A stretch of DNA of 62,653 nt, filler included, from Actinomycetota bacterium (GCA_009886115.1; 3 parts of 3 records of this genome joined end to end with filler, not necessarily neighbours in it), one strand, 5' to 3'; shown: positions 1 to 3,000, counted from the whole stretch's first letter. A program made the numbers.

Positions 1-3000
1 AGCCCATGCGGAGCTCGCTCTTGGGGTTGCCGGCATCGAGGAGACCGCGGAGCTTCGTGTCTCCCTTGTCGTCGAGCCGTTCATGGGCTTTCGTCACCAG
101 CCGTCGAGCCCGATAGAGCGGATCATCTGGCCTCTGTCAGGCTGCTTCGGAGTGTGGTGGTGGGCTCATGAGTTGGGCCAGCCATTTCCGGGTTGGTTCG
201 GAGAGCGACATCGGTTCAGATGGTGGCTCGTAGGGCTGTCCGTCGGGTTTGATGAGTGTGGTCTCGCGGGTTGTTTCGTCGATAGTCATGTTCCATTGGC
301 CTTCGTGGAGCATGTGATGATGATGCCAGCACATGGTGAGAAGGTTGTTTTCGTCGGTGGGGCCGCCATTGGCCCAATGGGTGATGTGGTGGTGTTCGAG
401 CCAGACGGTCCGGTCGCATTTGGGCCATCGGCACCGGTGTTGGTCGCGTTGGGTGACGACTCGGGCGAGCCAGGATGGGATGCGCCGTGATTCGCGGCTG
501 ACGCCGATGGTGTGTCCGGTGGTGTCGTGGGCGACGATCTGCCAGCGGCAGTCGCACGCCAGCCGTCGTGCGGTCTCCCCCGCGATCGCCCACCCGTTGC
601 CGATCGTGACCGGACCCCTGCCGCCTGGGCCACCCGGGCCGACTGAAGCTGCCGGATCTGGCGGGTCTGGCGGATCTGGCGGAGGTCCCGGGGTTCCCGG
701 GTCACCGGGCTGGGCATCCGGGCCGTCGGCAGCGCGGTCGACGTCGGGTCCACTGGGGGTGGCGCCGCTCGAGGCTGGGGCCGGGTCGTCGGCGAGGCGT
801 TCGGCGCCGATGTGGATGACAACGAGGGGCCGGGCCGGGTTCTGGGCCAGGATCTCGGGGTGGGCTTCGCACATGGTCACCAGCGCGTCGGCCATGCGGG
901 CGCCACGCCGGACCGGCTCGCCTTGTTCGAGACGGCCTTCTTCGGGAAGCTTGTCGGCCAGGCGGTTCAAGGTTTCTTCGACGATGACAGCCTGTTCTCC
1001 GGAGAGTTGTCCCCGGATCCGGACTGTCGAGTCGCGTCGGCGGGTGAGCTGCACGAATCGTTCCTGATGTTGGGCGAGCGCATCCTTCGGACTGACCGGA
1101 CGTAACGCCCGGCCTTTGACGACCGTGGAGTGATACGACCAGCCGGGAGCCTTCTCAGCCAACTCAGCATCGAGATCACCGTCAGTGTCGGTCTCGGCGG
1201 TTGCGACGGGGGCGAGGACCAGGAGCTGGTCCCACGACAGCCGACCCTCACGCCAGGCCTGCATCAGGGCCGGGATCGCCGGGGCCCGGGTCGCGATGTC
1301 GACTTCACGTCGTGCGGTGGGCAACGACAGGTTCGACCGGGCCGCGAGCCAGGTGGCGGTGTCGGGCATCCCGTCGAGCCGATAGCACTGGGACTCGTCG
1401 AACGCGGCGATCACGTCGATCAACTCGGCATGAACCGCGGTCATCAACGCTCGTAACTCGCCGAGCGTGTCGGCCAACTCCTCCGGTTCGATATCAGCAA
1501 AACGCGTCCCGTCCATTGACCGACATGATACCAGGGGGGTACGACAGTTATGAGCCCTCTCCGACCATAAATAGATTGAATCCGAGCCTCTGGCCATGAC
1601 CGAAGCCAACCATCGCCACATCGTGACGGGGGTGACGGAACGAGGTAGCGGGGGACTGACTCAACAGAGGCGCAGATCCGAAGGAGGGCGAGTTCCATCG
1701 GTGAAGGGACGCCGACTCTTCGAGCCCCTGCACCGCGACCGGTGGATCCCCTACCCGCTCACACGCCGCTCAGACGCGAAGAGCCCGGAGCGGCTGCTGC
1801 GGCCACCACAGCGCGCTTGCGGAGGTTCTCGGGGCCGAACCCGGCGGCGACCTACGCTCTGGCGGTGCCGGCGCCCGTCCACCAGTTCCTTCCCAAGCTC
1901 TCGCCGGGCGACGCGACCAGCCAACACGCGCTGCAGATTCGGCGCATCGTGCGCGAGCGCGGGCACCCGTCCGACATCTTCGTCGAGCACGTCGACGAGC
2001 GGCTGGCGACCGAGGTGGTTCCGTTCGGCGAGTACGGATCGCGAGCCCGTCCAGCCGGTACTGGCGACGTTCTCGTCTACCACATGGCGATCGGGTCGAC
2101 GCTGGCCGACTTCGTGGTCGACCAGCCGGGCCGGAAGGTCGTCGACTATCACAACATCACGCCCGAGCGGTTCTTCTTCGGCTGGAACGACGACATCGTG
2201 CACGGCTTGGCGCTCGGCCGACGACAACTCGCGGTCTTCGCCTCCGAAGCGGTGTTGGCCATGGCCGACTCGTCGTACAACCAGTCGGAGCTGCGGGCGG
2301 TCGGCTTCACTGCGACCGCGGTGGTGCCGATCCTCCTCGATCCCGATCAGTTCGGCCGGGAGCTCGATCGGGCGCTGCTCGGTGAGCTGCGTGATCGCAA
2401 GGCCGGGGGCGGGGCCGACGTGTTGTTCGTGGGCCGGATCAGCCCCAACAAGCGCCAGCACGAGGTGATCAAGGCGTTCGCGGTCTATCGCCGGGCCTAC
2501 GACCCCTTGGCCCGCCTCACGTTGGTGGGGGGATCGTCGTCCGACCGCTACCTCCGGGCGCTGCGCGACTTCGCCGCTTCGCTCGGGATCGCCGACGCCG
2601 TCATGTTCACCGGTGTCATCTCCGACGCCGCGCTCACTGCGCAGTATCGAGCGGCTGACGTGTTCCTGTGCTGCAGCGAGCACGAGGGGTTCTGCCTGCC
2701 CTTGCTCGAAGCCATGGCCAACGACCTCCCGGTGATCGCCGTCGCCGCGGCCGCGGTGCCCGAGACCCTGGGCGTGGCTGGTCTCAGCCTCGACCGGTGT
2801 GATCCGGCGCTGCTCGCCGCCGGGATCGATCGCCTCGTGCACGATCCGGCGCTGCGACGGTCGCTCGTCGCGGCGGGCCGGCAGCGGGTGGCCGAGCTGG
2901 CGATCGGGCCGTCGACCGAACGTCTGGTCGAGGCGTTGGGTCCGGTGATCGGGTCGTGAGCCCTCCTGCGGCGCGGGCCGAGCCCGATCCCGAGCCTCTC

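Follow-up and report, generated by a model that had tools for sequence, protein, structure and literature searches.

The DUF222-HNH genes of an Actinomycetota bacterium (GCA_009886115.1, a 5.4-Mb assembly of 69.5% GC, here G000) are supported as each carrying their own DNA-damage promoter, either of the PafBC (RecA-NDp) type or of the LexA type, with the two sets of genes forming separate clades. Most likely, these are ordinary 13E12/DUF222-HNH genes with damage promoters made of interchangeable parts, and their promoter states switch and are then inherited by copy bursts. The PafBC/LexA split is not special to this genus, as it is published in M. tuberculosis and common in related bacteria. 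The analysis started from one gene in a window of 62,653 nucleotides, filler included, of which positions 1-28059 constitute contig C113.

The window gene is found at 137..1516 on the minus strand and encodes a 459 aa protein of the 13E12 type with Pfam DUF222 and HNH domains, ending in Ala-Ala. The protein matched PF02720 with 53.3 bits (curated cut-off 24.4, E 3.4e-14), and its match to Pfam HNH was weak (19.8 bits against a cut-off of 21.4, E 9e-4). Profile and fold comparisons of the C-terminal domain led to HNH nucleases, and a structure model based on 86 alignment rows (pLDDT 81) predicts a Zn-binding HNH domain at residues about 345-430, similar to the HNH domains of IscB, TagI and McrA (VIA, Z 7.3-7.4). 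Here, C362, C367, H377, C396 and H400 are conserved in at least 90% of the 86 rows, and the Cys/His residues of the HNH motif are kept; the protein is a putative nuclease. In the same model, residues 27-140 are predicted to form a helical DNA-binding domain resembling those of ParB, KorB and Spo0J. This domain aligned to the ParB DNA-binding domain 6s6h over 94 residues (VIA, Z 8.7, rmsd 2.3) and to three ParB/KorB/Spo0J relatives with Z 7.2-7.8, values that are modest for a helical domain, and the profile match to the same ParB entry was weak (E 0.088), so the likeness may serve as a lead. A low-complexity Pro/Gly insert is present at residues about 240-300. The middle domain by itself (166 aa, pLDDT 84) reached a top Z of 4.6 and no fold match, which does not imply a new fold, and Foldseek with the whole model returned no match at E<=0.001. 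Neither NCBIfam nor PADLOC holds a family for the window protein; PADLOC, with a library of described anti-phage systems only, assigned no family to either of the two proteins tested. The flanking ORF at 1742..2959 on the plus strand encodes a GT4 glycosyltransferase; these coordinates count from the first start codon, and conservation with the congener G001 begins near 1822.

Directly before the window gene, at 1525..1546 on the minus strand, is a PafBC (RecA-NDp)-type promoter composed of the -26 element TGTCGT, 10 nt, and the -10 hexamer TATCAT, followed by 8 nt before the ATG. The full motif, TGTCGTACC-N7-TATCAT at 1546-1525 (-), scored 24.7 with the PafBC matrix, and the transcript would be leaderless or near-leaderless. 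A PF02720 profile search of G000 gave 15 matches on 14 contigs, which is a minimum as further fragments are found at C96, C175, C207, C15 and C169. Pattern and matrix scans reproduced the survey's finding of eight PafBC-type and seven LexA-type loci among these 15. TGTCRYAC..-N7-TANNNT precedes eight loci, 4-8 nt upstream of the start codon, while a LexA box is present at the other seven (an exact match at -7 in five and at -27 in one, and a match with one mismatch at -7 in the last). The matrix, trained on 12 non-DUF222 sites of G000 taken from a scan with an untrained pattern, gave scores of 15.2-24.7 for the eight PafBC-type copies, and none of the seven LexA copies exceeded 3.0. The untrained pattern itself, TGTCR-N11-TANNNT, had 32 matches in G000 at the published spacing versus 8-19 at eight other spacings, and a stricter form 23 versus 0-3. 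Genome-wide, the matrix gave 38 matches at scores of at least 17, including the 12 training sites, versus 0-7 for 12 column-shuffled matrices; at scores of at least 14 the contrast was weaker (73 versus 14-54). By raw count, the exact LexA palindrome showed no genome-wide enrichment in G000 (26 versus 9-27 at other spacings). The motif assignment is anchored on the published PafBC promoter geometry, tGTCgg(N10)tA(N3)T, in which the -26 element replaces the -35 (in the available text of PMC8635444), and on TGTCAC, listed as an M. tuberculosis variant of the -26 element (PMC8151990, available text).

Both regulators are encoded in G000. The pafA-pafB-pafC operon, a Pup-ligase/PafBC operon by which G000 is recognisable as an actinobacterium (the order may be Acidimicrobiales), is located on contig C27, and its PafB and PafC match the solved PafB and PafC, with the equivalents of the DNA-reading arginines R46/R50 of PafB kept. 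The lexA gene is located on contig C133, where no LexA box was found in the ~90 nt available before it, as the contig ends there. The PafBC motif is also found before uvrB, radA, pcrA and gyrB, as well as before recA and a DEDD-exonuclease/UvrC-like gene, both outside the training set. LexA boxes are found at imuA', imuB/dnaE2 and recA, and the DEDD-exonuclease gene keeps a dual promoter. The DUF222 promoters display what characterizes a PafBC regulon, i.e., a sense GTC -26 element, a 10-nt spacer and a -10 near the start in a genome with pafB and pafC in the pafA operon, as well as a LexA regulon, i.e., a CGAAC-N4-GTTCG box in a genome with lexA. PafBC and LexA probably bind these promoters, and the genes are probably induced by DNA damage.

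A survey of the order extended the comparison to other families. PF02720 was matched in 25 of the 31 genomes sampled, with copy numbers of 1-24 per genome. For 20 relatives every match was taken, for four more the best one, and duplicates, fragments without N-terminus and genes with less than 250 nt upstream were excluded from scoring. Sampling by Pfam overlooks copies (extra copies were found in G001). The resulting set is 163 scored genes in 25 genomes, comprising 66 LexA-only, 46 PafBC-only and 33 dual promoters, two with both motifs far apart and 16 with none. These states depend on thresholds set by the authors and on a matrix from 12 G000 sites, and several of the 16 genes without a call fall just below threshold. 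A motif is thus present in 147/163 genes. A PafBC score of at least 10 was reached at 76/163 starts versus 3/163 reverse strands and 1/156 far windows, and an exact LexA box was found at 81/163 starts versus 0/156 far windows (8/156 far windows at one mismatch). The earlier description of dual promoters as the state of the order's other families did not hold, as dual promoters account for a minority of the genes beyond the genus (33/142, 19 of them in the single genome G020; 14/123 without it), while 93/142 genes carry a single motif. Both single-motif types co-occur in 10 of the 23 other genomes, seven of which lack any dual copy. In an independent sample from the class and phylum (24 loci, 14 genomes), a motif was found at 15/23 scored starts, with eight PafBC, six LexA and one dual under a strict spacing rule.

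How promoter states relate to descent was followed in two trees. At least 25 changes among the three states are required on a FastTree of 139 DUF222 proteins (330 aa or longer). A quick IQ-TREE tree (LG+G4, unrooted) was built from 64 rows, i.e., all 16 full-length genus genes and 48 chosen representatives; the genes at C11, C132, C148 and C42, being broken or of insufficient length, are absent from the trees. Many deep forks of this tree are open (21/61), and state changes are given here without direction. The PafBC set of the genus (six rows) and its main LexA set (six rows) each form one clade with SH-aLRT 100, but the deepest branch with support separates the two, and the genus PafBC clade has its nearest relatives among LexA-only genes from other families (SH-aLRT 88-93). 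The proposal that LexA-type proteins form one clade apart from the PafBC clade thus stands for six LexA genes; the seventh, at C74, falls with its G001 relatives in a third group, although a single clade of all genus LexA genes was not rejected (p=0.106).

The two clades had been read as a dual control partitioned within this genus, i.e., after a dual ancestor was duplicated in the genus, one element would have survived in each daughter clade. In line with such subfunctionalisation, no dual promoter occurs among the 21 scored genus genes, while 9 of the 23 other genomes have at least one, and each G000 clade is uniform in promoter type. However, the two clades would need one dual ancestor, yet forcing them together was rejected (p-AU 0.0125), so the partition is not supported. 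Furthermore, single motifs predominate outside the genus, the same split recurs in 7 of 23 other genomes, G000 has retained a dual promoter on its DEDD-exonuclease gene, and the split is known from the 13E12 genes of M. tuberculosis in the available text of PMC3381160. A genus-specific partition is consequently very improbable. An even less credible alternative is that the motif matches reflect chance or a generic extended -10 promoter instead of PafBC and LexA sites. Copies inside one clade are not independent and the raw count of the LexA palindrome is at background, but the PafBC enrichment is specific to the spacing and survives the shuffled-matrix control, the motifs hold a fixed position at the start across many separate lineages and recur at repair genes, and they reappear in the independent class and phylum sample.

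The arrangement of the promoters suggests how the states may interchange. T[TG]GAC is found at most 40 nt before the LexA box in 38/66 LexA-only genes (11/16 genomes) versus 2/33 dual genes, and the main LexA clade of G000 carries TTGTG(T/C) at the matching distance instead. The start codon lies within the LexA box in 31/33 dual and 43/66 LexA-only genes. In the genome G022, seven copies forming one tight clade share the -10, box and start, yet four carry a PafBC element and three carry TGGAC(A/T), so that copies of about 83-85% DNA identity differ by a swap of the PafBC element for a -35 hexamer. The swap fits sigma adaptation, with the upstream element setting the need for PafBC and the box adding repression. 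In the preferred reading, DUF222-HNH genes would encode single-gene, damage-inducible, DNA-binding nucleases, each with a compact SigA promoter that is joined to the start codon. This promoter would consist of a -10 hexamer and, upstream, either a PafBC -26 element, which needs activation, or a -35 hexamer, which is active once derepressed; the presence or absence of a LexA box overlapping or close to the start would then give the PafBC-only, LexA-only and dual states. Such states would switch often and pass down through lineage-specific copy bursts. For G000 this would mean a single PafBC-only burst alongside two or three LexA-only lineages that had diverged long before the genus, and its split would reflect paralogues inheriting promoters from old, unrelated lineages.

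The DUF222 genes are conserved as cassettes running from promoter to stop codon, as had been proposed: in close copies, the alignable sequence begins about 0-30 nt upstream of the motif and ends no more than about 20 nt from the stop. The window copy and its closest paralogue at C148 (blastn of window 786-1636 versus C148:102-973, 84%) also have an upstream stretch in common at 1547..1636 on the minus strand, which marks how far the duplicated unit extends on its 5' side in this subclade. The window cassette is nested in the relic of an ISL3-family insertion sequence. The left end of the relic is found at 1711..1785 (-), with a terminal inverted repeat at about 1756-1785, and is 75-82% identical to the left ends of three intact elements (L192, L193 and L196), the transposase of which is DDE_Tnp_ISL3 (E 3e-49). 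An 8-bp target-site duplication is located at 1786..1793 (no strand); past the right end, in contig C190 (overlapping window 1-109), its other copy agrees at 7/8 positions. Another intact element, L198, also shows an 8-bp duplication. A remnant of the ISL3 transposase at 1..136 (-) starts directly at the DUF222 stop codon and, interrupted by a second internal deletion, continues into C190 as far as the right inverted repeat. Among 150 other genomes of the order, 18 have matches to its 42-aa peptide at 42-78% identity, and no Pfam match was obtained with the peptide on its own. At the same locus in G001, two glycosyltransferase genes are adjacent, the GT4 gene directly following the GT gene of C190, and G000 carries about 1.9 kb more, i.e., the ISL3 relic with the DUF222 cassette. 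Judging from the match of both relic ends to intact elements, the duplication and the remnant abutting the stop codon, the cassette entered the insertion sequence at some time. ISL3 as a general carrier of DUF222 cassettes was rejected, as ISL3 ends match no other DUF222 locus of G000.

Whether the promoter-to-stop unit is itself a true mobile element, with the nuclease cutting and host recombination copying the cassette without transposase, terminal repeats or target duplication, appears rather doubtful. Mobility would account for the window copy in a relic missing from G001 with the remnant joined exactly at the stop codon, where contigs of the public runs X4 and X5 also diverge (window 136-137). 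It would likewise account for four G000 copies (C113, C39:108k, C39:118k and C140) missing from G001 with both flanks on one G001 contig, for copies in G022 at dS 0.07 with unrelated flanks (identity 0.52 versus 0.51 at random), and for copy bursts such as that of G020, with 19 of 20 copies in one clade. However, no clean empty site was found, and either side of the inserts is occupied by 0.2-0.9 kb of other debris; at C39:108k and C39:118k, candidate clean sites were dismissed as G001 holds unrelated debris or a different insert. Four further loci (C123, C39:159k, C74 and C132) occupy the same place in both congeners, and no terminal repeats or target duplications were found at the cassette edges in window 1-1900, the closest copy pairs or the G000/G001 sites. 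The cassette therefore differs from an autonomous insertion sequence in terminal repeats, target duplication and clean empty site alike. The genes of C128, C170 and C72 gave no G001 DNA match at E<=1e-40, and the site comparison covers the eight loci above, as flanks at these three fell on separate G001 contigs or were left untraced. The syntenic pair C123/L015 (dS 0.36) also has a 3' flank at random level (0.56), so the sharp edges may come from selection on both cassette ends together with gene conversion, which stands as a full rival to mobility.

The C-termini of the proteins are unusual in composition. Among 125 complete tree proteins, 31 end in Pro-Pro (14 of 22 genomes), 25 in Ala-Ala (12 genomes; 56 proteins together with Pro-Pro) and 12 in another X-Pro (six genomes); the Pro-Pro and Ala-Ala ends need 12 and 14 changes on the tree. 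A second count gave 31 Pro-Pro and 26 Ala-Ala of 129. In heuristic ORFs used as background, Pro-Pro and Ala-Ala ends numbered one and 34 of 2858 in G000, and two and 10 of 316 among flanking genes of relatives. The bias was weaker in the class and phylum hold-out (n=24), with three Pro-Pro, two Ala-Ala and 12 ending in Pro. The tmRNA tag of G000 ends in LAA. As described in the available text of PMC3834316, terminal Pro-Pro stalls termination in E. coli, with about 20% of chains ssrA-tagged, and Pro-Pro-stop is under-represented across bacteria (10.1101/751305, available text), while terminal Ala-Ala is required but insufficient for ClpXP (PMC10862746, available text). The DUF222-HNH proteins may have built-in turnover through the C-terminus and be degraded fast; a rival explanation is that the Pro-rich ends form a docking peptide. 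A weak literature search linking 13E12 with tmRNA, ssrA, ClpX or degrons gave no mention of 13E12 among the matches listed.

Several roles may be considered for the proteins. A semi-selfish nuclease, the gene of which is copied by damage-induced recombination, is an attractive if uncertain candidate. A host-owned accessory nuclease of repair or recombination is conceivable with somewhat greater reserve; here, the regulators would tune paralogues to different lesions (PafBC to gyrase and fork damage, SOS to UV) and gene conversion would homogenise the copies. Such a host role agrees with dN/dS of 0.08-0.40 in all 13 pairs by a simple counting method, i.e., purifying selection, with co-regulation with uvrB, radA, pcrA and recA, with the division of labour between the PafBC and the SOS pathway, described in the available text of published work, and with a repair role proposed, untested, for 13E12 HNH genes in sources available in part. 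Yet the distribution is patchy, with no match in 6/31 order and 43/61 phylum genomes, the copy number varies from 1 to 24, and broken copies are frequent in G000 (an internal stop at C11, a truncation at C132). A suicide or defence nuclease is improbable, and some other role still more so. The most far-reaching reading, in which DUF222-HNH genes are transposase-free, damage-triggered mobile nuclease cassettes, the -26/-35 swap picks the circuit, and Ala-Ala ends or Pro-Pro-stop with tmRNA lead to ssrA/ClpXP and limit toxicity, is unlikely as a whole. Regardless of role, the coupling to DNA damage is kept while the regulator changes many times, suggesting that damage induction is what selection preserves. 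The function of 13E12 proteins, long an open question, is thereby narrowed down; the ParB/KorB-like domain and the C-terminal turnover signals may be two testable leads to it, and the near-isogenic promoter pairs of G022 are natural material for PafBC sigma adaptation outside mycobacteria.

What the analysis adds is the switching of states across the order, the swap between -26 and -35 elements, the nesting in ISL3 and the biased C-termini. A search combining DUF222 with PafBC, covering few subscription papers, found no literature; among the matches listed, no title on DUF222 concerned its regulation, and those on PafBC/LexA regulons did not mention acidimicrobi. A search for REP13E12 as an HNH endonuclease gave unrelated papers only. 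The closest known system is 13E12/REP13E12 (PF02720) of M. tuberculosis, which also combines DUF222 with HNH in multiple dispersed copies, while G000 belongs to a distant environmental actinobacterial order known here from sequence alone. In the available text of PMC3381160, Rv0515, Rv0336, Rv1702c, Rv2100, Rv1588c and Rv0095c are bound by LexA, whereas Rv1128c, Rv1148c, Rv1945 and Rv3466 have RecA_NDp promoters, probably without a true LexA site. Rv2100 is dual, remaining inducible after mutation of an SOS box that contains its transcription and translation starts. As 13E12 equals DUF222 (PMC13157036, available text), all three promoter states were already known in one species, although the available text of the two reports holds no promoter-state phylogeny, no -35 versus -26 swap in near-identical copies and no C-terminal bias. 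The PafBC-type promoters share the geometry of sigma-adaptation (RecA-NDp) promoters, including the missing -35 and the conserved PafB arginines, but the local consensus is TGTCRYA-CCC instead of TGTCGG. The LexA boxes share the core of the actinobacterial SOS box TCGAAC-N4-GTTCGA, on imuA'/imuB/dnaE2 and recA as well as over the DUF222 starts, while a second layout, in which the box immediately follows TTGACA within the -35/-10 spacer, is common in other families. Compared with intact ISL3 elements, the window relic shares imperfect inverted repeats of about 30 bp, the 8-bp duplication and a transposase remnant, but the DUF222 cassette stands in place of most of the transposase. Finally, the HNH domain is similar to that of free-standing homing endonucleases and IscB-like proteins, from which DUF222-HNH differs by having no RuvC, no intron or intein host and no conserved neighbour gene, with conservation ending at the stop codon in a comparison made without covariance models for an RNA partner.

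The DEDD-exonuclease/UvrC-like gene of the genome under study (G000) carries a dual promoter with both PafBC and LexA motifs (C193:7701-7741, L277), suggesting from its sequence that dual control is present in G000. At recA, the LexA box and the PafBC motif are about 100 nt apart, the LexA box being the farther upstream (C39:3786-3903, L276). An exact LexA box at C148:1087, which precedes a PafBC-type DUF222 copy by around 200 nt, apparently serves the divergent gene. Near a contig end, three LexA-like boxes are spaced 28-29 nt apart (C177:121-191). In G020, a complete 2.5-Mb genome of the order sample with 20 DUF222 matches (L024, L108-L134), all 19 DUF222 genes scored displayed a dual promoter and formed a single clade.

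The window is a scaffold of contigs C113, C114, and C119, joined at 28060-28159 and 57950-58049 by stretches of N that include a 12-nt spacer. Its DUF222 cassette has replaced most of the transposase of an ISL3 relic, which spans window positions 1-136 and 1711-1793, runs on into C190:110-175, and still has its two inverted repeats as well as an 8-bp duplication. The insertion point is flanked by two glycosyltransferase genes. Elsewhere, a DUF222 copy and gene debris are the G000 equivalent of a small two-gene module in the congener G001 (C139:8247-9056, L219), which by eye looks like an antitoxin and Doc-like toxin pair.

The C-termini of 125 DUF222-HNH proteins (L004-L181) are strongly enriched in Pro-Pro-stop (31/125) and Ala-Ala-stop (25/125), and Pro-Pro-stop is almost absent from the G000 background (1/2858).

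Other PafBC-like sites were observed in G000. A strong motif (score 26.1) directly precedes a gyrB/parE-type topoisomerase subunit gene (C128:29948(+), L281), and four identical 22-nt sites with a shifted -10 (C69:21476, C138:11405, C193:11073, and C210:5641) are followed by short, unrelated ORFs. Finally, a PafBC-like motif with matrix scores of 17-19 and a variant -10, CATCGT or CATCAT, lies upstream of members of a second multi-copy family with genes of ~310-330 aa (C74:14808(+), C131:16706(-), and C76:2010(+)). An NCBIfam search with the C74 member gave no match; we presume that the family resembles AbiEi/DUF559 proteins.
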